Assembly: GCA_004022145.1 (NCBI GenBank)
Contig: RCNU01000041.1
Reading direction: 5' to 3' (one strand)
DNA from: Paecilomyces variotii
Taxonomy: Eukaryota
DNA length: 26,504 nt
Position numbers and translations under genes: made by a program. Below are positions 1,299 to 23,300 of this stretch, piece after piece; position 1 is the stretch's first letter, and every line of letters starts with the position of its first letter. The notes under the pieces were generated by a model that saw only the letters and a program-made list of their open reading frames with translations, ran no database searches and had not been told where the DNA came from.

Positions 1299-4200
1299 AA
1301 ATAGACCCGAATAAAATACTAATATAGTTTTATTAAATAACTTAAGTATTATATATATTTAGATATTATTATCTTATATCCCTATATTTAATAGAATTAA
1401 AATATTAGTTTTAATAGTAGTATTATTAGCTATAAAGAATATTATAATATTAATAGCATTAATTAATAGTAGTATAAATATAAACTATATTAATATAGTA
1501 GTAATAGAGTAAATTAAGGGGATTTATCTAACTTTAGGACTAGTATTATTACTAAGCATTTAGGATATTAATAATATATAACTAGCGAAACTAATAAAGC
1601 ACTATTTTATACTATATTATATAGTCTTAGGTAAGAAAATAAAACTTTATATATTTAGAGTATTACTAATAGTATTTAATATAATTCTTAGTTTACTATA
1701 GCTAATAGCCGTAAATCTATTAATTAATTAAAAAGAAAGAAATATATTAAAGCAATTAGCTAAGCGGTAAAAGATCTCTAAAATAAGATATATAATAGAA
1801 ATTAAAAAGAATATAAAAGATAATATTAAAGAAGATTTTATATCTATACCTTAATTAGGCTTACTTATAGCAGCAATAAACAAAAAAAAAAGAAGACTTA
1901 GTTACTATTAAAATACCGCAGGAGTATATAGATCTAATATAAATATTTAATAAAAAGAAAGCTAAATATCTGCCTCTATAAAGACTAGGCATTAACTATA
2001 AGATTAACTTTATTAAAGGAGTAATACTCCTATATAGACTATATTACTATTTATTAGAATATAAATTAGAACTACTTAATAAGTTTCTAAATAAAGGTTT
2101 AGAATAAGGGTATATCTAGCCCTCTAATATACCGTGCGCCTTACTATTATTATTTATACCTAAATAACCTAAAGTTCTATAGTTTTATGCAGATTTTAAG
2201 GTTATTAATAAGAGGATAATTAAGAATAAATACTTAGTTCTGATAATAGATAACCTATTCTTAAGGCTATAAAATATAGTTATTTTTACCTATTTAGACC
2301 TTTGCTTAGTATACTATTTAATCTATATAGCGGAGGAATATAAGTAAAAAACAGCCTTTTATACTAGATATAGTTTATTTAAGTAGCGAGTAATACTATT
2401 TAGTCTCTATAATGCCCTAGTAATATTTTAAGTATTTATAAATATAATACTTAGATAGTATATTAATAAATATTATATAATTTATCTAGATAATATACTT
2501 ATCTTTAGCTATAATAGGAAGCTTTATATCTAGTATATAAGAGTAGTTCTTTAGAGCTTATTAGATAATAGCCTATTTTATAAATTAAAGAAATATAAAT
2601 TCTTTATCTTTAGAGTTATATTCTTAGAGTTTATAATTATATCTTAAGGGGTAGTAATAAATAAATAGCGAATAGATATTATTACCGCCTAGCTTATCCT
2701 AATATTAATAATAAACTTAATCTAGTTTCTTAGTTTCTATAATTTCTATTATTAGTTTATTAGATATTATAGCTAAATTACCCTTTTATTAACTTAACTT
2801 ATAAAATGTAATATATTATTTATATAGAAAGAAGAAGCCTAAATAAGCTTCTAAATACTTAAGAAGTGCTTTATAAAGGCCCTATTATTAAGGTATTTTA
2901 ATCTAAATAAACCGCGCATATTAGAGATAAATGCTAGTAGTTTTACTAGGTTAGCGATATTAAGCTAGCTATTTAAGGATAGAGTATAATATCCTATTAT
3001 ATTCTATAGTATAAAGTTTATAAATATAGAATTATATTAGCTAATATATAAATAAGAATTATTTACTATTATTAATGCTTTTAAAGTTTAGAGATATTTT
3101 TTTATTAAAATAGCTAAACTAGTTAAAATAATTATAGACTATAATAATCTAAAATATTTCTTAATAATATAGATTTTATCTAAGAAATAAGCTAAATAGA
3201 TAGAATATCTCTTATAGTTTTATTTCTGTATTAAATATAGGCCCAGGAAATATAACTTTACTAATAGCCTATTATATTAAGATAATTATAAATCTTAATA
3301 AATACTAAAGAATATATTAGCTTAACTCCTTTAAATTAGAGTAATATAATGTATAGAGAAATATTATTACTTTAAGATATTATTATAAGATCTATTTTCA
3401 GATTAAGATTAAGGACTAAATATTCCTTTATAGGACTAAATTAAGTATAGTTATATAGAAGAGATAAAGTTAATAATATATACTTAGCTAAATATCTATT
3501 AAGATAAGAATAATAGTATTTTTTATTATAATTATACTAAAATATATATTCTTACAGAGAAATTCTAACTAGTTATTCTTTATAAATTCTATAACTTAAG
3601 AGTAAGTAGCTATTAGGGTAAGGAAACTATAATTAAGAGAATTAGAAGATAGATATTTTAGCCTAATTTAGTATCTATAATAGTAGATTATATTTAGAGT
3701 TATCTAGTATACTAAAGAGCTAAACTAGCGTAGATATATTATAGTATTTTAATAGTATTACTAGTGCCTAATAGATTATAAGACTATATAATAGTAAATT
3801 TTATTTTAGGACTTCCCAAGAGTATAAATAATTCTAGGTTAAATTATTTTATAATCTTAGTATTTATTAATTAATTTAGTAAGATAAGCTATTTTATAAT
3901 ATATACTGTAAAAATAGATATAAGAATCTTCGCGCAGCTTTATATTAAGAATATATTTTATCTCTATAGTATATAGAGATCTATTATCTTAAATAAAGGC
4001 TTATTATTTATATTAAGTTTCTGGATAATATTAGCTAAGGCCCTTAATATAAACTACTAACTATTTATAGTATTTTACTCTTAAATAAATAAGGCAATAG
4101 AATATTTAAATTAAATACTAGAATAATATCTAAAGATATTTATAAATTAGCAATAGAATAATTAAGCTTACTTATTAGCAATTATAGAATATACTTATAA

Positions 4201-4830
4201 TAACTCTTATTAGGCGGTAATAGAAATATCCCTATTCTTTATCTGCTATAGCCGGCACTTAAAACTACTAAGTTTAACTAAGGTCCCTATTAATAGAGAT
4301 ACTAATATAATATAATTTATATAAGATATTTAGAAGCTATATAGAGAATTTATTAAATACTTTTTATTACTTCAAGATTAAATACTAGAGAAGTCTCTAG
4401 ATAAATTAATAAATTTTAAAATCGGCAATAAAATCCTCTTTAATACTAAATACCTGCATATAAATAGACTTAATAAAAAGCTTAATAATAAACATTAGGG
4501 TCTATTTAAGGTCTTAGCTAAAGTCGGCCCCTAAGCTTACTGCCTAAAACTACTTCTTTTATATTAGATATATTTAGTTTTCTATATATCTTTACTATCC
4601 CTATAGAAATAAAACAAATTATATATAGATCTAAAGCCTAAACCGCTAGTTTAAGTCTTAAATAATATAAGACAGTATAATAAATAAGAAGTTAAAGAGA
4701 TATTTAATATTAAGGGCCGTAATAAAATATTAAAATACCTTATTAAATAGTATAGTTATAGACATTAAAAGAATATATAAAAGCCTTCTAAATATATTAA
4801 AAATATATCTAAAGCAGTATAATAATATTA
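1261..4830 (+). pseudogene. pol: pol of element A: aspartic protease, RT, RNase H, integrase, chromodomain
   Basis: De-RIPped motifs: ALIDSGA 1456; [24 protein letters not shown] 2348-2419; YLDD read as YLDN at 2483-2494; ETDASGF 2924; HHCC ~3590-3712; ISDRG 3986; HPQTDGxTE 4076; GPF 4499; chromodomain EWEVKEI..YLVKWYGY..NTWEP 4682-4790. Many TAA/TAG stops. Confidence 0.95.
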
Positions 4831-6560
4831 GATATTAATAGGAAAGCTAGCCTATATATTAGAGGCAGTATAATATTTTTATACTAAATATCTCTTTATA
4901 CTAAGTCTAATATTAGATAGTTAAAAATAAAGGCTAAATAATAAAAATTACTATTTAAGGCTAGAGCTAAATAAAGAAATCTATTATTTAGAGCTTTATA
5001 TTATATATACTAAAACTTAATAAGCTAAGCAGTTCTTCTGCTATTTAGAGTAAAGCATTAAATAAGATAAGACTATATATTAATAATATAAATATAGATA
5101 AGCTAATTAGGCTATTTTATTTTATTTCCCTAAGTTAATAGATAAGCCGAGTTGGCTATTTAAATCTATATTAAGGAATTATTTATAAACTAATAAGTAA
5201 GGTCTAAGGAATAATCTAGAGTAAATATTAATTACCCTTACTAGTTATTAGTAACAGAATAGTATAAAAGTTAGAAGTCTTATATTAACTATAACTTAGA
5301 ATAGACTATTATATTTAAATAACTAAGAACCTAACTAGTTAGCATTTAAACAACCTATTAGATAACTAAGAGTACTCTTAAATAATTAAATATCCGAAGC
5401 CTTTTTAGCTTTAAGCTTATATATTATTAAGATATATATATTACTTAATATAGATATTAAATATATATTAAATAAATTAATAATAGATATAGATAATATT
5501 ATTAAATTAAAAAATAATAACTCTCTAGTAGAAGAGAGAATATTATTTAATCTATTTTTTAAGTTCTCTTAAGAGATGCAGAAGGCTGCTAAATATATAA
5601 TTAAAGAGCTATTAGATAATATTACTATTCTAAAGGAATTATTAAGAAAATATATATTACTTATAGCTTCTTATATATATACTAATAAATAATAGGGTTT
5701 AAAATAAATTACTAAGAATATTATATAAAAAGAACTGCCGTTACTCCTTAATAGAGAATAAATACCTCTTATATATCTAATATAATTATTACTATTAAAA
5801 AAATTAGAGTCCTATTATTAGATAAGGGTAAAGCATATTCTAAAGAACTGCCCTATTAGTATTAAGCGCCTTGAAGTATAATAAAAGAGGAGGGACCTAG
5901 CGATTTAAAGAGGTAACTTAATGCCCCCCTAAACTAAGAATATTAGCGCATAAGAAGATAAGTAGTAATATCTACCTCTAAGTTATAAGAAGAGCCCCTA
6001 AGCTCTATATACACTAATTTATAAATAAATAGGGATAAATTATCCCGCTAGCAAATATTATAAAAAAGGAGAATATTACTAATATTATAATTAAATTAAT
6101 ATTTATAAATAATAATAAGGAGCTATATTATATTATAGCATATAATTTAAAATAATAAGTTTTTATAATTAAAACTAGACTATACTTAAAAGCAGAAGAG
6201 GATAACCTTAGCCTAGATATAAGCAGATTGCTTTTTATAATTCTAAATATTAAGATATTAAATATGCTAAACTTCGCATAAGCAATTTTAAGGAGGCTAA
6301 ATATTTAGTCTATAAATCTTAAACCTCATAATAATTTATATAATAAACCGGATAATATAATAACTATAATTAATCTAAAGTATAATCTATATAATAAGTA
6401 TAATTAGGACCGTTTTAAAGCCTAAGATAACTATAAATAAGATTATTTTAATAAGTATAGTTCTAAAACCTAGGACTTAAGCTAAACTACTCTTTAAGGG
6501 TTAGAAGTCTAACTAGGGAGTAGTAAATAAGTAAATAAGAAATAGATAGATAGTAATATA
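4831..6560 (+). pseudogene. Unknown ORF or C-terminal Pol extension downstream of the chromodomain in element A
   Basis: The pol frame keeps reading as protein-like sequence (e.g. EMQKAAK at ~5573, KGKAYSKELP ~5825, EEGPSDLKR ~5887) to ~6060, then shifts frame into an acidic stretch. Stops are RIP-type. No family recognised. Confidence 0.5.
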
Positions 6561-13249: not shown

Positions 13250-13299
13250 ATCTTAAAGATACTTACTATTAAGTTACTTATATTCTTTAAAGAAATAAT

Positions 13300-13757
13300 T
13301 ATTTTACTTAAGTAAACTAAATTAAATTTATTAAAGCTTTAATTTAATAAAGTAATATAATAGAGAACTTTAAAATAAAAAGAAGAAAAGAAAAAAAATT
13401 TAAAGAAAGAATTTTAATTCTTTTATTTATAGAATCTTTTATTTTTTAATTACTTCTAAATAATATAAGCAGTTAAAGGTTTTATTAATAGATCTCTTAT
13501 TTTATCTCCTTATTAAATTAATATTATATTAGTATTATAATATTACCTCTTTATTTAAGCTAATTTATCTTTAAATTAATAAGATAATTATAATTTTTTT
13601 ATTTCTTTAAATTAATATTTTTATTAATATAATTAATCTAATAATTTAAATTAATTAGCGGCTTAAATTTATTTAAAAATCTATTATAAAACTCTTAAAG
13701 CTTTAATAATAAATTCTTAAAGTTTTTAATAAGATATTATATTAAATCTTTATTATA
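13300..13757 (+). repeat. LTR-like direct repeat, copy 1 (458 bp)
   Basis: Aligns end to end with 13760-14215; begins tatt, ends ctttattata; preceded by a purine-rich stretch (aaagaaa) that may be a RIPped PPT. Confidence 0.85.
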
Positions 13758-13759
13758 TT

Positions 13760-14215
13760 TATTACGCTTAAGCAGATTAAATTAGATTTATTAAAGCTTT
13801 AATTTAGTAAGGCAGTATAATAGAGAACTTTAAGCTAGAGAAAGAAAAGAAAAAGAATTTAGAAAAGGAATCTTAATTCTTTTATTTATAGGATTTTTTA
13901 TTTCTTAACTACTTCTAAATAGTATAAGTAGTTAAAAGTTTTATTAGTTAATCTCTTACTCTATCTCTTTATTAAATAGGCGCTAGGTTAGCGCTATAAT
14001 ATTACCCCTTATTTAGGCTAATTTATCTCTAAATTAATAAGATAATTATTATCCTATTAATCTTCTAAATTAAGATCTTTATTAGTATAGTTAATCTAAT
14101 AGTCTAGATTAATTAGCAGCTTAGGTTTATTAGGGAATTTATTATAAAAGTCCTAGAGCTTTAGTAGTAAATTCTTAAAATTTTTAGCAGAATATTATAT
14201 TAAATCTTTATTATA
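13760..14215 (+). repeat. LTR-like direct repeat, copy 2 (456 bp), probably the 5' LTR of element C
   Basis: Starts tattacgc (=TGTYACGC), ends ttata (=..ACA); less RIPped than copy 1; followed by an ORF-like region. Confidence 0.85.
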
Positions 14216-14399: not shown

Positions 14400-14831
14400 T
14401 ATTATGCCCCTAGCCCCCCGCTAGGGCATAAGCTTGCAGGACTGCAGTAAAGCTCTGAATCTAAATGTAATGCTGAGGTAATCAGTTAAACCCCGCTCTC
14501 CCCGCTTTCAGGATTTATATGAGATAAAGCTAGGAAGTGCTTAAGATTTAGAATATAAATAGGCTTTAAATTGCTGTCTTACTAGAAGCTAGCGATTTAT
14601 TCTAATATAATATATATCTTACTATTTCCTTACTTATATAAACTCTTTACTATTAGAATCCTTTAGCATAGACCCTTTTTTACGCTAGTTAGACTCTTTA
14701 TTATAATAATTAACCCTTTATCTTGCCAGTAAACTCTTCTTTAAGCTAAGTATATAAAGCTATTATCCCTCTTGCTATAATTGCTGGCGGAGTAATTTAT
14801 TAGCAATTCTTAAGAACCCCTATTCCTTATA
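14400..14831 (+). repeat. 5' LTR of element B
   Basis: Gap-free alignment with 21491-21922; TATA-like tatataaa at 14751-14758. Confidence 0.97.
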
Positions 14832-14847
14832 GTTTAGATTACTCGCC
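14832..14847 (+). other. Putative self-priming PBS (Tf1/sushi type)
   Basis: No TGG start; agattactcgcc (14836-14847) is complementary to ggcggagtaattt (14786-14798) in the LTR with one bulged G and one G:U pair. Confidence 0.65.
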
Positions 14848-14855
14848 CTAGTAAT

Positions 14856-17800
14856 ATAAGTAGCAGTATTAATGTATCTTATAATTTAGGGGATAAGGGT
14901 CTTAGCGCTTAGCCTATAATATATATTTTAAAGGATTTAGAGAGCGCTAAATTTAGCTCGCAGCAATTAATTGCTGAAGCTAGCTTATAAACCTTAAGAG
15001 ATACTCTAATAAGCCTAGGGATAGAGCAAGCTTAAATAAAAGATAAACTGTTAATAAAGAGAGACCTCCTATAGCTCTTTACCGCTAATTATATTAATAA
15101 GCGGCTAAGGCTTAAGCTGCCGGAATTATAAAGGTATAAAGCTATTATGCTTAATACCTATTACTAATAGTACTAGTATATAGATAAATATTTAGCTTAT
15201 AATACTTTATTATTTAAAAATAAAGCTAAGAAAGTTACTTATACTGTAATATTACTAGATAGGGAACCAGCTTAATCTTAAATCTACTAGCAGGAGGATC
15301 CTAACTTCTAGATGCTAACCTAAGAAGGATTTAAGGGTTAGTTACTAGATTTACTTAATAATCTATATTACTGAGGATAGAATATAATAAACTGCTTTTA
15401 TACCTTAATCTAATATCCTAATTAAACTGCCTAAGCCTTTTTATATTATTTTAAGTAGGCTTAAGCGGAGTTAAATTAAGATAAAGAGTTTAATAATAAT
15501 AGAATTATCTAGTCTTATATCTTCTACGCGAAATTTTAACCTAAGGTTTAGATAAGGTTGCTGAACTATTAAGACCTCCCAATAAATCTTAACTAATTAG
15601 CGTTTTTAGCTACTAATTAAGAGATAAACCAGAAAAAAAACAAGATTATAAATTAATCTATTCCGCCAAACGCAAGTAGATTAATATAGAATATATTAAA
15701 GGACTTCCTCTTAGAGTAAAAGAGGAAGGAGACTAGTAACTAGTGTGCAGAGCTAACTAAATCTTAAAAGAAAAAGAAGTTTAAATTGCCAATAAAATAG
15801 GATTAGCTTAAAAAAAAAGGCTGCTGCTTTAACTATAGCAAAATAGGCTATATATAGAGATCTAAATTATATCTGAAAAAGAAAGACCCCTCTAAAAAAG
15901 AAAAACCTAAGACTATTACAGTCTTTTGCAATAAAGGGTCTAAGCTAGAGAAAGAATCTTTATATACCCCAATATAACTGCACCTTCCTAATAGTATATT
16001 TAAAGATAAGGCCTTTATTAATTTTAGATCAGCCCGTTACTATATTAGCCTAGATATAGCTATATATTATAAAATTCCTTTAAACTTCTAGTAATATATA
16101 AACTTCAAATCTATTAATAGGCATAAAATTCAGAAGTATAGATTATTTAAAGCAGAGATCTATATTACTAACTCTAAAGAAATAATAAAGAAGGCAAAGA
16201 TATACTTTTATATTATCTCAATACCTAGATTAAATATTATTCTTAGGAAACTATAGCTATATATTGTAAATCCTATTATAAATTAAGAGTTAATAATTTA
16301 GAGATATTATATTCTATATTAGCTATAGGTAAAGATTAAAAGCGCTTAATAATTCTCTAAGATAGCAAAAGGAAAAATAATCTATATACTTTATAGGGAC
16401 TGAATTAACCCTATTATTCTTAAAGACCTACCTCTAGAATATAAGAAGTATATTAAGGTCTTTTTAAAAAAAAGAGTGCGAGTATATTGCCTGCTAAAAT
16501 AGGTAAACATAAAATTAAACTCTTAGATAGTAAGGCACTTCTATAGGGTAGACTTTATAACCTCTCTGCTAAAGAATTAGATATTTTATGTAAATATCTT
16601 AAAGATATATAATAAAAGAGTTAGATATAACTATTAACTAGTCCTATAGGGGCACTTGTTCTATTTATTCTAAAGACAGATAATACACTAAGGCTCTATA
16701 TTAATTATAGAGCTTTAAACAGCATTATTATAAAAAATAGATATCCTTTACCTAGGATAGATAAAATGCTTAACTAATTAGTTGGCTCTAAAATCTTTAT
16801 TAAGCTTAATCTTAGAGATATCTATTATTAGATTCGAATCCGCCAAAAAGATAAATAGAAGATAGCCTTTTAAATCTATTACAGACACTTTAAATATTTA
16901 GTAATATTATTTAGCCTATATAATACGCCTACTACTTTTTAAGCCTATATTAATTAGGCATTGCAGGGGTTATTGGATATCTATTATATTATATATTTAG
17001 ATAATATCTTAATTTTCTCTAACTCTATTAAGGAGTATAAGAGATATATAGCGCAGGTCCTAAAGAGGCTATAAGAGTATAAATTATATATAAAGTTATC
17101 TAAATATAAATTCTATAAAGAGAGAGTTAAATTCCTTAGTTTTTTTATAGGAAAAGATAGAATAGAAATAGATCCTAGTAGAATAGAAATTATTAGAGAC
17201 TAGCTAGAGCCTAAATTTTTTAAGGAAGTCTAAGTCTTCCTAAGATTTGCCAGTTTCTTTAGAAGGTTTATTTATAACTACTCTATAAAGATAACTCCCC
17301 TAATTAGTTTACTAAAAGGAAGTGTTTAGGGGAAGAAAACTAGGATATTTACTTAGACTAGAGAAGCTGTAAAGGCGTTTAATAAGCTAAAATTAGCTTT
17401 TATAACTCTGCTAGTACTAAGGTATTTTAATCTAAAGAAGCTAATAATACTAATAACTAATATCTTAGGATTTGCCCTCGCCGCTATATTTTTTTAAGAA
17501 GATAGTAATAAGACAGTTCCGGGTATTAGGTTAAAGATAGGTCTAAAAATTAGAACCTAGATAGACTAATAAACTGTGTCTAAAAACTAGCACCCTATAG
17601 CATATTATGCCCGGAAGTTTATTAAAATAAAGGCATATTATAAGGTCTATAACTAAGAACTCCTGGCTATTATTAATGCTTTTAAATATTAGTATTACTA
17701 CTTAGAAGGTAATAGATATCCTATATAGGTATAGAGTAACTATATAAACTTGCGCTATTTCTTTACTGCAAAAATATTAAATAATAGATAAGCTTAGTAG

Positions 17801-19606
17801 GTAGAACTATTAGCAGTATATAACTTTTAAATTAAATATAAGCTAAGACAGCTTAATACTGTAAATGCCCTATCTAGAAGAGTAGATTTTAAATTATCTA
17901 AATCTAAATCCTAGATAAGATTACTTCTAATCCTTCAGAAAAAGCTTTAGTATAAAGCTTAAAATAAGTATATATAGGAAAGTAATTTAGAGTATAAACC
18001 TATTAAAGCGGGCGGTATAAGTAGTCCAGAATATTTAATATAAAGAATGCTAGTTATTAGGGTAATTAGGGAAGAGTCTATTTAGGATGCTATAACTCCT
18101 AGCCTGCTCTTTATATTAAAGCAGCTTTAAGCAAGGGATACCTTTATTTTAGAGAAAACTAGGGAATTAAAAGCATATACTCTTAAAGATAGCTCAGAGA
18201 TAATATAGAGAATAAATAATAAAGGACTATTATAGAAGGATAATACTATATTTATATTAGATATATCCGCTATAAAGCAAGAGCTCTTTTAAATATATTA
18301 TAATAATCTTTATATAGGGCATTAAGGTATTAAGAAGACTAAAGAGCTGCTTTAAAGAAGATTTAACTAGCCTAAGATAGTATAGGATATATAGGAGTAT
18401 ATATCTATATATAATATCTGCTAGAGAAACTAAACTCTATAGTATAGGCTATATAGAGAGCTAAAGTCTCTGCTAATCCTAGCGCAGCTATAATAGAGTA
18501 TCTTAATAGATTTTATAGTAGGACTGCCGCCGTTAGAGAAATAGAGAGTTATCTATAATTTAATATTAGTAATTATAAACCGCTATTTAAAGATAGCGCT
18601 TTATATCCTTACCCATAAAATGTTAAAGACAGATAAGATAGCTAACCTTATTATAAATTATATTTATAACCGCTTTAAACCTCTATAATTAATTGTATTA
18701 AATAGGGGGGCGCTATTTATTAGTAAATACTGAATAAAACTTTGCTGCTATATTTAAATTACTAGACTTTTAAGCACTGTATTTTATCCCTAGACTAATA
18801 GCTAGACTAAAAGGTAGAACTAGATATTAGAGTATTACCTCTGGGTCTACTTAAACTATAAGTAAGATAATTAGATATCCTTATTAACTACAGCGGAGTT
18901 TATATATAATAATTTAATCTATACCTCTATAAGCATAACTCCCTTTTATATTATCTATAGATTTAATCCTAAGAATTAGGATAAATATAACTTCAGGAAG
19001 CAAACAGATATACTAGCAGTTAATAATTAATTAAAAGAGCTTGCTGAAATACGCGCCTAATTAAAAGAATCTTTCTAAAAGGCTATTACTGCGCAATAAA
19101 AGTATTATAATAAAAAGTATAAGCCTAGATCCTATATAATAGGAGACTAAGTCTGCCTTTTAATAAAGAACTTGAAGATAGATTAACTAATTAAGAAACT
19201 AGACATAAAATACTTAGGACCTTATAAAGTTATAGAGAGAATTAGAACTTAAGCCTATTGGCTTAGGCTCCCGAAGAGCTTAGACAAAATATACTTAGTC
19301 TTCTATATTTCTCTATTAGAGCCCTACTGTTAGAGATTAGGGGCTAAACCTAAGTATCTAGATCTGATCTTAGTAGATAATAAACTAGAATAGGAGATTA
19401 AAGCCATTCTAGATAAATAGACAATATAGGGAAAAAAGCAATATTTAATTAAATAGAAGGGCTATTTAGATTATAAAAATTTATAGCAGCCTAAGGAGGA
19501 CCTTAAGTATACCTAAAATATATTAGCTAAATTTAAAGTAATAATATAAGCTATTAACAAAATCTCTCTAAAAAGGGCTCTGAGAAGCTCTAGAAAAAAG
19601 AGTTAA
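14856..19606 (+). pseudogene. gag-pol polyprotein of element B (Gag, PR, RT, RNase H, IN, chromodomain)
   Basis: Start ata (=ATG) at 14856. Knuckle CFNCGKxGH at 15825. AFIDSGSA at 16011-16034 in the same frame as the knuckle. YLDD read as YLDN at 16994. TDASGFA 17456; HHCC ~18300-18421; MDFIVGLP 18506; VSDRG 18695; FHPQTDGQTER 18782; GPY 19217; chromodomain EWEIEAILD..YLIKWKGY..NSWQP 19388-19492; stop at 19604-19606. One frameshift, probably at the A-run ~16466. Confidence 0.96.
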
Positions 19607-19763
19607 TAAAACTAATAAGATTTCCCTTTTTTTCTACTAGGTTTATAGGTTTTACTTAATTATTTTATTATTGAATTTATATTATTCTTTCTCTATTTAC
19701 CTATCTATAGAGGTTTAGGAGTTTTAATAAGGATATAAGAAGCTAGTCTATCTAGAAATAAAT

Positions 19764-21200
19764 TTATTTTAACTGGGCTATCTCTAGTAAGAACTAAAAA
19801 TATAGGTCTAAGATTAATCCCCCCTATTTATCTACTTCACCGTTATAAAACCCTATTGGCATAGATTTATCCTCCTTTTTATTGGAGAAAGGAGGAATAT
19901 TATAAGTAATATATATAATTTCTTGCATACGCTGCAGATTTAATGCTATTAAATAGAGTAATCTAAGCAACTTCTGTTAGAGCTGTATTATAGACTGCTT
20001 ATATAAAGATAAGGTTAATAGGATAGTAGATATAAGCTTATTTATATCTGCCTTAATAGGCGCTTTGTGCAGGTATATCTTTATAAAAGATTTATATTTA
20101 CTATAGGCCTCCTTAAAAGACCTATAATTACCTAAGAGATGGGCCTCTTAGCTAAGGCTCTATAGATAAATAAGCTTGTCCTTATAAACTGATAAGACTA
20201 GAATATAGGGCTTATACTTGCAACTATAATAATTGCACTTAATATTAGTATTAATACAGGTGCACTAAAGTGCCAGATTTTTAATTAGCCCCTTTAAATA
20301 ATAAAGGCATATCTTTTAAGGTATTAAAGGAAACTCCTTACCCGGCCGGGAGGTAGTAAGGCTATCTTTTATTATTATATTAATAACAATAATAATAGTA
20401 GTTTTAATTAGTATCTTAATAATAGCCGGTTTAGTCTAGGTCCCTATATTAATAACCTCTTTATACCCTATGCTTTATCTCTAGGGCCTTTTTATAGTAT
20501 AAGTAGGAGTTATTTTTAGCTTAGCTATAGTAGCTGGCCTAATAATAGAATAAGTTCTCTTTCTCTTTAGTAGGCTTTTCGGCGCTGCTATTAAGTTAGA
20601 TAGATTTATTTATATAATAGCTAGGATTATAAAAAAAGGCTAATTTAGTAGAGGTATAAACCTTCTATACCTTAATTCTAGTGTAATATTTATTTTAGCT
20701 AATAGATCTTCTATAGGACCTAGGGCGAATAGAGACACTGACCTATTAATAGCTATAAAAGGGGTAATACTTATCTAAGGAGGCAGTCTCTCTAGCGTTA
20801 TAATAGCAGCTAGAGTCCCTAATATTTTAATAATAATTAGGGGATTATTTTCTAATATTATAGTAGTAACTAGATTTAGCTGTGTTATAATAGCAGCAGC
20901 TGTATCCTCTATCTTAAAGATAGGAGGAGGGGATAGCTCCCTAAAGGGGGAGATAATATCTTTAGGCTGTTAATACTATAGAAATTAGTATATAATATAT
21001 AAAATCTTGCACTAGAATACTTACTTAAGGAGTCTTTTTATATTGCTTAAATATAAAATAAATTTAGGGTAGTATTGTCTAAATTAAATTAGCTTATATT
21101 AATATAGTTAATTAAGATAACTTACCCCTAGAGCAGGAAGCTCTAGAAACTAATAAAAAAACAACTAATTTCTTAAGTTTAATAAACTACTATACTATTA
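19764..21200 (-). pseudogene. Antisense, intron-containing cargo gene of element B: Pro/Thr/Ala-rich region, Zn2Cys6-like cluster, helical C-terminus; 5' end uncertain
   Basis: Intron 21125-21079 (GTAAGT..GCTAAT..TAG, 47 nt) and intron 21024-20976 (GTAAGT..TACTAAT..TAG, 49 nt) flank a 54-nt exon. The last exon 20975-19764 is 404 codons with only TAA/TAG stops. CX2CX11CX8CX2CX6C at 20309-20205 (three tgc intact, three tat read as RIPped tgt). Confidence 0.72.
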
Positions 21201-21473
21201 GCACTATTATAATCTTAAAAATATATCCAGATCTTTATTTAAATATATTTAGGACTAAGAGCTATATATAGCAAGAGATAGGAAGATAATTGCTGGGGAT
21301 TAAAATTCTAACCTTATAGTATTGTATAAATAACACTCCCAGCTTATATAACTTCTTAACCCTTCGCCGCAAAGGCAGTAAGAAGCTCCTTTATTTACTA
21401 TACTACAAATCTCTATAAAGCTATACTCTATATTTAATATAACAACTTTACAACAGCTTGGGGATGAGCCTTT

Positions 21474-21487
21474 AAAAAGGGGGGGAA
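21474..21487 (+). other. Polypurine tract of element B
   Basis: aaaaagggggggaa 3 nt upstream of the 3' LTR. Confidence 0.92.
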
Positions 21488-21490
21488 TAC

Positions 21491-21922
21491 TATTATATCT
21501 CTAGCCCCCCACTAAGGCATAAGCTCGCAGGACTGCAGCGAAGCCCTAAATCTAAATATAATACCGAGGTAATTAGTTAAACCCCGCTTTCCCCGCTTTT
21601 AGAATTTATATAAGATAAAGCTAGGAAGTGCTTGAGATTTAGAATATAAATAGGCTCTAAATTATTATCTTACTAGAAGCTAGCAATCTGTTCTAATATA
21701 ATATATATCCTACTATTTCCTTATTTATATAGACTCTTTATTACTAGAACCCTCTAGCGTAGATCCTTCTCTATACCGGTTAGACTCTTTATTATAATAG
21801 TTAACCCTTTATCTTGCTGGTAGATTCTTCTCCGAGCTAGATATATAAAGCTGCTATCTCTCTTGCTATAATTGCTGGCGGAGTAATTTGTCAGCAACCC
21901 CTAGGAACCCCCGTTCCTTACA
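21491..21922 (+). repeat. 3' LTR of element B
   Basis: Ends ...ttaca followed by the TSD ctttt. Confidence 0.97.
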
Positions 21923-21927
21923 CTTTT

Positions 21928-23300
21928 ATAATATTAGGGAGTTTTAGTTTTTAAGTATTTCTTATCTTTTTAAGGATTTTAAAGGAGCCCTTTATTTAAT
22001 TACTAAGTTTCTATAAAGATTAATTAAATATTTAGTTTATAGGCTTAATAAAAACCTTATTACTAATATTAAAATTAATCTCTTAATAATATTTATTAGC
22101 CTATCTTTTCTATTATTCTTAGGCCTTTTTAATAGAAGCTTTTATTACCTTCTAGATCTATTAAAGTTAATATATCTATTATTAAGCTTTAGCCTAATTA
22201 GCTCTCTTTAATATTAAAGTAAATTATAATACTAAGCGCTAGTTAAATAAAATATAAAGCTTATATCTATATTTAATTATAAATAGAGATATTCTTATAA
22301 ATTCTTAAGTTAATACTACTATTATAAAATTAACTATTAAGAGATAATTTAACTAATTATTCTAATAATAATTAATATAAGGCTATAATTTCTAGGCTAT
22401 ATATTAGTTTAAAACCTTTATTTAACTATCTATTTAAAGGTATATAGCTAAAAAGAGCTTTAATTTTACTCTTAGTAGTAAATAAAATTTATTTTAAAAA
22501 TTTAAAATAAATTATAGTCTTTAATTAAAAACTATTATATTAAGAATACTCTTATAATAATATATATATTTAAAGAAGATTTTAGCTATAGTCCGCGCTA
22601 TAGCTATATTATAATAAGAAATAGAGATAAAGTATTTATTAAAATAATTAACTACTATAAAGATAATATTATAATTATTTTTATTCTTTAAAAAAGATTA
22701 GAAATCTATTAAGATATATTACTATAGTTATTTAAAAATAAGTAATAGTTAAAGTAATCTTAATAAAGAATCTTATAAGTTCTTAGTTTAATAATAAGTT
22801 AGATAATTATTAATATATATTAAGGTATAAGCTTAAGAAATAGGTTAAAACGAATAAAATAAAGTAATTAATACTAAGACTAGCTATAAGATCTTTATTT
22901 AGCTAATTTAAGCTATTATAGGCAGGCTTAGTAAATAAAATATAGCTTAAAGAGCTTAAATTTAAATTAAGCTATATGCTAAAGATATTTTTATAAGATT
23001 ATATAACTTCTTATATAAGTATTAACTAATAGATTAATTATTCTATTAGAATATCTTAAGATAGTTTTCTCTAGAACTTTTTTATCTCTTATACTAATAT
23101 TATAATAATACTTCTTTTCTTAAAATTAAGCTCTATTAAGATTATTTTTTAGCTTTAACTTATTTAAATAGTAGTAATAAAAGTTAGTAATAATTTTTTA
23201 AGCATATTATAGGTAATATATAGGCTTTTTAATTAAATTATTATAACTTAACTATTTAATAATATATTATAGTATAATAGAGAGAATTAGTATAAAGAAT
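21928..23300 (+). pseudogene. Gag-like ORF remnant of element C (continues from ~14290-14399 across the insertion of element B)
   Basis: Rejoining at the TSD gives a long low-complexity P/Q/S-like frame, then a helical protein-like stretch from ~22741 (..QAREMGQNEWDEVIDAETGYEVF.. de-RIPped). No diagnostic motif; position after an LTR is the main support. Confidence 0.4.

Follow-up and report, generated by a model that had tools for sequence, protein, structure and literature searches.

A probable spliced antisense accessory gene with a six-cysteine motif in a Ty3/Gypsy retrotransposon relic of Paecilomyces variotii

What is encoded on the strand opposite to pol, between pol and the 3' long terminal repeat (LTR), in a degenerate Ty3/Gypsy retrotransposon of Paecilomyces variotii? 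The element lies in a stretch of 26,504 nucleotides (nt) of contig RCNU01000041.1, hereafter the window, and all positions below are those of the window. A preliminary description of this DNA pointed to a minus-strand frame with two fungal-type introns in this segment, and proposed an independently transcribed accessory gene for a divergent Zn2Cys6-like protein. Our analysis indicates that the element probably does carry a real, spliced, protein-coding antisense gene as part of its own sequence. As modelled from comparison with related proteins, this gene would consist of two exons and one 58-nt intron, would comprise 397 codons, and would be located on the opposite strand between pol and the polypurine tract (PPT).

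The frame stands out from a background that is poor in open frames. The whole window is AT-rich, with a GC content of 0.11-0.31 in 1 kb windows, and contains a single stop-to-stop frame of at least 80 codons. On the minus strand, the frame at 20975-19829 has 12 stops in 382 codons, compared with 50 and 43 in the other two minus frames. A first-order Markov simulation gives an expectation of about 40 stops per frame, and the observed depletion was reached in none of the 2000 simulations; the procedure was repeated for 20966-19827. Together with protein relatives from Paecilomyces, this depletion bears out the minus-strand coding frame described previously between pol and the PPT.

To find these relatives, the read-through translation of the minus frame (P0001) was compared with 1.84 billion representatives in a full HMMER scan. 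Seven proteins matched at E <= 0.001 (E 3.7e-32 to 2.1e-4), among them P0003 (phmmer E 3.7e-32), P0004 (1.8e-25), P0006 (4.5e-11), and P0007 (1.5e-8), and tblastn locates the homologues at 20969-19827. The named matches are hypothetical proteins of P. variotii (P0003, P0006, and P0010, the latter in the cluster of P0004) and of Paecilomyces lecythidis (P0007). The N-terminal half of the translation is covered by P0003, P0004, P0005, and P0010, and the C-terminal half by P0006, P0007, P0008, and P0009.

Repeat-induced point mutation (RIP) provides a direct way to compare a degraded frame with intact proteins. A window codon was classified as RIP-compatible if it could be derived via C>T or G>A changes from some codon for the residue of the homologue. 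The RIP-compatible fraction was 0.98 for P0010 (131 aligned positions; 0.21 in a shuffled control), 0.98 for P0004 (94 positions), 1.00 for P0008 (34 positions), 0.87 for P0003 (187 positions), 0.59 for P0006 (176 positions), and 0.57 for P0007 (174 positions). Thus, the window copy derives by RIP from a gene that is almost the same as an annotated P. variotii gene, and more distant subfamilies exist as well.

The relatives differ in their composition. In P0003, represented by four accessions on five contigs, an unrelated Arg/Glu-rich helical tail comes after the N-terminal 190 residues, and P0006 and P0007 have the cysteine-cluster half behind differing N-termini. Truncation of copies, imperfect gene models, or domestication could each explain these one-half relatives. 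P0004, an N-terminal fragment of 97 amino acids, and P0008, which corresponds to the last 34 residues, are both recorded in Logan on a 1733-nt contig; if this is a single contig, they would belong to another copy in which the two halves are united in a single gene. Other searches gave few or no relatives: of the pattern matches in two metagenome scans (599 and 315) and in two viral-contig scans (34 and 48), none could be confirmed. In word-indexed protein searches, none of the 6882 candidates was scored for the read-through frame, only P0007 itself and P0006 were recovered among 420 candidates for P0007, and only P0007 was recovered among 8000 scored candidates for alignment A3, a list probably flooded by low-complexity RIP words.

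The N-termini of the homologues define the exon structure. In P0010 and P0003, residues 1-17 correspond to 21075-21025, off the frame of exon 2, and the similarity then resumes at 20966. All 17 codons of this first exon are RIP-compatible with P0010, including two TAA codons for Arg and Gln and the start codon at 21075-21073, which now reads ATA and is RIP-compatible with ATG. The coding sequence is therefore modelled as 21075-21025 joined to 20966-19827 with a stop at 19826-19824; it contains 13 in-frame stops, and 11 internal stops of the RIP type are found in exon 2. The intron length equals 3n+1; thus, splicing is needed to join the frames of the two exons. Both frames are also joined if 49 nt are removed (GTAAGT...AG, acceptor at 20976), and this acceptor, which keeps the frame and adds three codons, may be used alternatively. 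Of the downstream intron described previously, the donor at 21024 is retained, and the acceptor is moved from 20976 to 20967, nine nucleotides further on, since the N-termini of P0010 and P0003 place it there.

The upstream intron of the preliminary description, at 21125-21079, cannot be kept as an intron of the coding sequence. It lies 5' of the conserved Met and ends 3 nt ahead of the start codon, and the three frames upstream of it contain 9, 15, and 10 stops in 108 codons. No stop-depleted frame exists upstream, so this sequence would be at best an intron of the 5' untranslated region (5' UTR). A coding exon upstream of 21125 was considered and ruled out by the same lack of stop depletion and by the two homologues, both of which begin at the Met aligned to 21075. 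With 1.62 matches expected, the window contains five of the intron-like pattern, a number attained in 3 of 100 shuffles; the pattern alone proves little, although a chance match so near upstream on the right strand would be uncommon. A TATA-like string had also been mentioned; TATATATA is found 38 times in the window against 42.7 expected, and this string carries no weight because it occurs at chance frequency.

The retrotransposon that hosts the gene is identified by its LTRs and its pol relic. Direct repeats at 14400-14699 and 21491-21790 are 86% identical with a start-to-start spacing of 7091, and alignment extends each of them to about 432 nt. A plus-strand read-through of the gag-pol relic, in which X was placed at 146 in-frame stops and which is closed by a double stop at 19604-19609, matches the Pfam families RVT_1 (E 9.3e-21, residues 590-748), RT_RNaseH_2 (6e-13), RT_RNaseH (8.6e-11, residues 894-974), Integrase_H2C2 (2.1e-8, residues 1125-1177), and SH3_Tf2-1 (3e-13, residues 1415-1476). 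The resulting domain order, reverse transcriptase, RNase H, and integrase, is that of Ty3/Gypsy elements. In this heavily RIP-mutated frame, the Chromo domain (PF00385) at residues 1499-1546 stays below the cut-off (E 0.16; 12.3 bits against 25.1). Because the LTR pair, the PPT, and the pol matches agree, the element is a RIP-killed Ty3/Gypsy LTR retrotransposon of the Tf2/chromovirus type, about 7.5 kb long, which agrees with the preliminary description, the Chromo match itself remaining under the cut-off. It lies on the plus strand.

The accessory gene shares the mutational history of the element. RIP targets duplicated DNA, and we used three signs of it: TpA/ApT above 0.89, (CpA+TpG)/(ApC+GpT) below 1.03, and differences between copies that are nearly all C>T or G>A. 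The two indices are 1.48 and 0.55 for the element, 1.49 and 0.56 for the accessory region, and 1.35 and 0.19-0.21 for the flanks. Hence, this element copy is a RIP relic. The threshold of 0.89 for TpA/ApT is quoted in the available part of one published study (PMC8365987).

The element family is high-copy, and its copies probably include the gene. Contigs from three sequencing runs of one organism were aligned to 18500-21950 at 80% likeness, which yielded 1623, 2021, and 870 repeat contig pieces per run. They cover all 30 depth bins, starting at the end of pol and running across the gene into the LTR, with comparable depth throughout, the listed pieces being 182-690 nt long and thus shorter than whole copies. 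The window and the repeat contigs differ at 1128 positions; in run X1, the differences comprise 317 C>T, 340 G>A, 101 A>G, and 126 T>C, with each transversion class counted at most 3 times. A fourth run, from a second organism, gave 30 pieces, part of them within the accessory gene. No internal repeat pair brackets the accessory segment in a repeat search of the window. The coding evidence, the matching RIP indices, and the coverage by repeat contigs agree with the earlier proposal that the accessory gene belongs to the element family. As a separate observation, run X15, labelled as the second organism, contains a 195-nt contig identical to 21319-21513, which spans the PPT/LTR junction, and its other listed pieces differ at 20-53 letters each; the identical contig represents shared sequence, mislabelling, or carry-over.

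The coding sequence (21075-19824, minus strand) is flanked by pol, which ends at about 19609, and by the PPT at 21474, so that 215 nt separate its end from the stop of pol. Since the intron runs antisense to the genomic RNA, it is kept in that RNA and copied with the element. With 13 in-frame stops and a mutated start codon, the window copy itself is dead and without functional consequence, and the functional proposals below concern the gene as carried by intact members of the family.

Several features characterize the predicted protein: (i) a basic N-terminus is followed by an Ala/Pro/Thr-rich region, probably disordered, that holds the conserved motif SITPF.AINRSVS...VEDLLAE, (ii) two basic patches possibly form a bipartite nuclear localisation signal, as judged from their sequence, (iii) a six-cysteine cluster begins after about 235 residues, in the middle of the protein, (iv) the approximately 90 residues after the cluster are predicted to form three helices, and (v) the C-terminus has a conserved acidic motif, PPFSD-acidic...GEV. 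An AlphaFold2 (AF2) model of P0007 alone places the helices downstream of the cluster at residues 132-151, 154-182, and 196-220 with a predicted local distance difference test (pLDDT) score of about 60-72. The Ala/Pro/Thr-rich region and the KRKR patch, both noted previously, recur in the homologues P0003 and P0010.

The cysteine cluster was originally guessed by reversing RIP, and the guess is borne out by an unmutated protein. The window copy has the residues C,Y,C,C,Y,Y, three of the cysteine columns being occupied by TAT codons, and intact P0007 reads C-x2-C-x11-C-x8-C-x2-C-x6-C followed by KPVP, with identical spacing and Cys at all six columns, including each column where the window has TAT. 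In all four sequences that cover the cluster, these columns contain either Cys or Tyr only, the latter being the RIP product of a TGY>TAY change. The features of the element and of the gene are listed in Table 1.

Table 1. Positions of the retrotransposon and accessory gene features in the window
Feature	Position	Strand	Evidence
5' LTR, RIP-mutated	14400..14832 (approximate ends)	+	direct repeat with 21491-21790, extended by alignment
gag-pol relic: reverse transcriptase, RNase H, integrase, Tf2-type SH3, chromo-like end	14900..19609	+	read-through, Pfam
Exon 2, 380 codons, plus stop 19826-19824	19824..20966	-	stop depletion, phmmer, tblastn, RIP-compatibility
Six-Cys cluster C-x2-C-x11-C-x8-C-x2-C-x6-C	20205..20309	-	alignments A2 and A3; intact P0007
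Two basic patches, KRKR (20567-20556) and KRPxRxS (20492-20472)	20472..20567	-	P0003 has KRKR and KRPRRRS
Intron, 58 nt: GTAAGT donor, TACTAAT 18 nt before ACAG acceptor	20967..21024	-	homologue N-termini, motif search
Exon 1, 17 codons	21025..21075	-	codon-by-codon comparison with P0010 and P0003 N-termini
Upstream intron of the preliminary description, 47 nt, upstream of start	21079..21125	-	motif only; 5' UTR intron or chance
Polypurine tract AAAAAGGGGGGG	21474..21485	+	read from sequence; adjoins 3' LTR
3' LTR	21491..21922 (approximate ends)	+	repeat pair; repeat contigs have loose ends at 21920 and 21922

What could such a protein do for the element? We tentatively suggest, with considerably more doubt than for the existence of the gene, that the product acts in the nucleus, binds zinc and nucleic acids, and regulates the element. 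Under this proposal, the gene would be transcribed from a promoter in the approximately 400 bp between the ATG and the PPT or, alternatively, antisense from the 3' LTR, and the protein would enter the nucleus. The six cysteines would bind zinc, probably as a binuclear cluster similar to the Gal4 type with an enlarged first loop. The protein would then regulate the expression of the element or its chromatin state via nucleic-acid binding, and could be a functional counterpart of the retroviral antisense regulators and of the nuclear proteins encoded by additional open reading frames (aORFs) of plant Gypsy elements.

A number of observations weigh against this regulator proposal. The window copy is not expressible as a protein. 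P0003 shares the N-terminal half only, P0006 and P0007 share the C-terminal half only, and the full two-half architecture is found only in the window copy; moreover, P0003, P0006, and P0007 were compared as proteins alone. The consensus of the Zn2Cys6 family (PF00172) is C-x2-C-x6-C-x5-12-C-x2-C-x6-8-C, and the observed spacing of 2, 11, 8, 2, and 6 falls outside it: where the consensus allows 6 residues in the first loop, P0007, P0006, and the window copy all have 11. None of the four homologues compared with Pfam (P0003, P0006, P0007, and P0010) matched PF00172 at E <= 10. The AF2 pLDDT of the cysteine domain is below 50 with a five-row alignment and 52-63 with a single sequence. In the ESM Atlas, the template modelling (TM) scores of the PF00172-carrying neighbours are below 0.5, under the bar of the tool.

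These neighbours were obtained with residues 84-160 of P0007, for which seven of the ten structural rows (rows 4-10) are clusters carrying PF00172, with TM scores of 0.45-0.49; in two of the seven, the aligned part is PF00172 itself. The Atlas model of P0007 has a mean pLDDT of 0.60. Three unnamed Ascomycota clusters with 52-157 members reach TM scores of 0.54-0.66 to the cysteine domain, and these model-based similarities hint at a wider family. The same four homologues matched no other Pfam family at E <= 10 except for one chance row for P0003, the window read-through had no PF00172 match at E <= 1, and its rows for OKR_DC_1 (0.0055) and TILa (0.25) were set aside as sub-threshold chance matches in Pfam. 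Foldseek produced no match at E <= 0.001 against PDB, a wide VIA-align search produced generic helical matches only (Z <= 8.5, residues 130-232), and a PDB sequence search with P0007 produced one irrelevant row with E 0.6. When P0007 residues 84-225 were modelled as a homodimer together with four zinc ions, the prediction scored 0.02 against a mark of 0.32 and was used neither way. As a lead only, DUF3716, a domain that occurs in transposon-borne genes of Zymoseptoria, is present in 28% of the members of one Atlas feature neighbour (score 0.79); no Pfam match to DUF3716 was found in P0003, P0006, P0007, or P0010.

Thus, in view of the missing PF00172 match, the 11-residue loop, and the low-confidence folds, we do not class the domain as a Zn2Cys6 member: it is Zn2Cys6-like in its pattern, and its membership in PF00172 is not established. 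The description of the product as a Zn2Cys6-like protein stands with respect to the six cysteines in order; it does not extend to the length of the first loop or to the profile comparison with PF00172. A bolder version of the regulator proposal, which we regard as rather unlikely, is an element-encoded Gal4-like factor with an expanded first loop that has spread through Ascomycota, binds the LTR or host chromatin, and either activates the element or shields it from silencing. If this were true, the factor would be a fungal counterpart of the Tat/HBZ-type regulators of retroviruses, and it might connect mobile elements with the evolution of the large zinc-cluster family of fungi.

Among the other explanations, the one that fares best assigns the same domains to a different task. 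A zinc-binding RNA or nucleic-acid chaperone, or an adaptor for host factors, would not be a sequence-specific regulator; it could act, for instance, in the import of the pre-integration complex or in targeting, with the N-terminal motif serving for docking. The presence of one sharply conserved short motif within the long Ala/Pro/Thr-rich region, as well as the lack of a matched Pfam DNA-binding domain, is in line with such a role, and the available part of a review on aORFs treats nuclear import and regulation as equally open (PMC7264820). Two points, both of them weak, speak for a regulator instead: the order of basic patch, six-cysteine cluster, helices, and acidic tail is nearer to that of a fungal zinc-cluster activator, and the structural neighbours in the Atlas are Zn_clus clusters. 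On balance, a chaperone or adaptor seems to us distinctly less probable than a regulator.

The gene could also be a passenger without any role in the life cycle, picked up in a single event by an ancestor of the family from one host gene or from portions of two. In the annotation, the named homologues are ordinary hypothetical proteins, and their contigs measure 528-798 kb, and P0003 on the one hand and P0006/P0007 on the other each share one half of the protein, as if two sources had been joined. However, the frame, the intron, and the six cysteines are kept across subfamilies (RIP-compatible fractions of 0.57-0.59) and in two Paecilomyces species, the position and orientation match those of published accessory aORFs, and a passenger would hardly remain open in a high-copy family. 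We therefore consider mere capture improbable.

Another explanation ascribes the activity to the antisense transcript and not to the protein. Convergent transcription would form double-stranded RNA (dsRNA) over the 3' end of the genomic RNA, which would feed silencing or dampen sense expression. The required geometry, with the gene ending so close to the pol stop, is indeed observed, and regulation mediated by dsRNA is named as a possible role of aORFs in the available part of the same review (PMC7264820). RNA and protein roles are compatible, but an RNA acting by itself leaves the conservation of the frame, of the six cysteines, and of the peptide motifs across subfamilies unexplained, and we regard it as quite improbable. 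Finally, that the frame is not a gene at all but a by-product of RIP-skewed composition, or an unrelated element nested in the 3' region, is scarcely credible: TGY cysteine codons can indeed derive from CGY arginine codons via RIP, and intron-like motifs and TATA strings arise by chance in the DNA of the window, but neither accounts for homologues with E 3.7e-32 to 1.5e-8 that include unmutated proteins with the same motif, or for a stop depletion absent from all 2000 simulations; the codon-level RIP-compatibility with the homologues contradicts such a by-product too, and no internal repeat pair flanks the segment, whose RIP indices equal those of the element.

Whatever its function, the accessory gene gives a concrete handle, its conserved six-cysteine cluster being flanked by basic patches, helices, and an acidic tail, in P. 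variotii, a fungus that is transformable and crossable. The antisense intron is a built-in marker of passage through the sense genomic RNA. Intact relatives are annotated as "hypothetical protein" with no link to a transposon, and recognition of the family would improve the annotation of fungal genomes.

Other repeats and relics are present in the window. A stretch of about 460 nt is duplicated in tandem at 13295-14215 on the plus strand, directly before the 5' LTR; the duplication consists of three collinear blocks with 78-83% identity and a spacing of 458-460. A second, different Gypsy pol relic at 1904-4807 on the plus strand is 31-36% identical to the pol of the main element. On the 3' side of this second relic, the minus-strand region 5236-5811 has 8 stops in 192 codons, a value reached by 0.2% of 2000 simulations; the region was chosen post hoc on a T-rich strand, and it may be a second, unrelated antisense accessory open reading frame (ORF). 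No tblastn similarity was found between this frame and the P0003/P0007 family. Past the 3' LTR, a third pol fragment, integrase-like, at 22263-22766 on the minus strand is 30% identical to pol residues 1184-1355 (E 7e-8).

Comparison with known systems places the gene in a recognized class. Published examples of antisense accessory genes at this site, past pol and ahead of the 3' LTR, come from both fungi and plants, and the statement that Gypsy elements encode only gag/pol(/env), on which the preliminary description relied, is incomplete. LTR retrotransposons with antisense accessory genes were first recognized more than 20 years ago, and, to our knowledge, no such gene has an established function. 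In the literature searched, paper supplements not being covered, no fungal retrotransposon is described as carrying an antisense gene of a zinc-cluster-like type. The fungal example is brtn, reportedly first described by Zhao et al. (2011, Virology 417:248). According to the available parts of later accounts, brtn is an antisense additional gene of the Boty-like (BcGypsy1) elements of Botrytis cinerea that is also found in Sclerotinia and has a transcript match in Monilinia (PMC8365987, PMC7264820, PMC4227169, PMC5987419). As far as these accounts describe it, the Boty element and the window element are alike in being fungal Ty3/Gypsy elements with a chromodomain-type pol, the Chromo match of the window element being below the cut-off, and with one opposite-strand gene between pol and the 3' LTR. 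The hosts differ: the window gene belongs to Eurotiales, as judged from its named homologues, and brtn to Helotiales, the BRTN protein being compared here by description only. None of the seven phmmer matches is named BRTN.

In plants, the aORF-3R group comprises gene23 of maize Grande and the corresponding frames of rice RIRE2, Silene Retand, and Phaseolus PvRetro13, all of which, like the window gene, are antisense ORFs between pol and the 3' LTR (PMC7264820). In the available sections of this review, these frames are described as kept in most copies of a family, some of their products as nuclear, and the Grande antisense gene as transcribed from its own promoter (PMC7264820). Unlike the window gene, they belong to plants and mostly to non-chromovirus lineages, and their proteins differ, PvRetro13 having an SMC-like domain and Retand a transposase_28 domain; sections 5 and 7 of the review mention no zinc cluster (PMC7264820).

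Tn123 is described as a "Tf2-type retrotransposon" of P. variotii CBS 144490, a fungus with active RIP, and copies of it that RIP has mutated lie in AT-rich regions (PMC6300479). As far as the available account goes, Tn123 and the window element share the element type and the RIP-degraded AT-rich setting, and the proteins nearest to the window gene come from P. variotii. The two elements were compared by description only: Tn123 spans 7,091 bp (231,587-238,677; PMC6300479), and the LTRs of the window element are 7091 apart from start to start, an agreement that may be a coincidence or may reflect the same element measured differently. The part of the Tn123 account available contains no mention of an antisense gene (PMC6300479).

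At the protein level, the window gene shares with Gal4-type Zn2Cys6 proteins the six cysteines in order, the spacings 8, 2, and 6 within the consensus, basic residues after the second cysteine, a helical region after the cluster, and an acidic C-terminus. It differs from them in that the cluster is in the middle of the protein and not near the N-terminus, the gene is transposon-encoded, the first loop is expanded to 11 residues, and PF00172 is not matched. A spliced minus-strand gene near the 3' LTR is also known from the retrovirus HTLV-1 (human T-cell leukaemia virus type 1), whose HBZ product is a nuclear, transcription-factor-like protein with a bZIP domain. HBZ is retroviral, has bZIP instead of a cysteine cluster, and bears no sequence relationship to the window gene; by analogy, it would nevertheless be the nearest parallel for a possible mode of action of the protein encoded opposite to pol in this Paecilomyces element.

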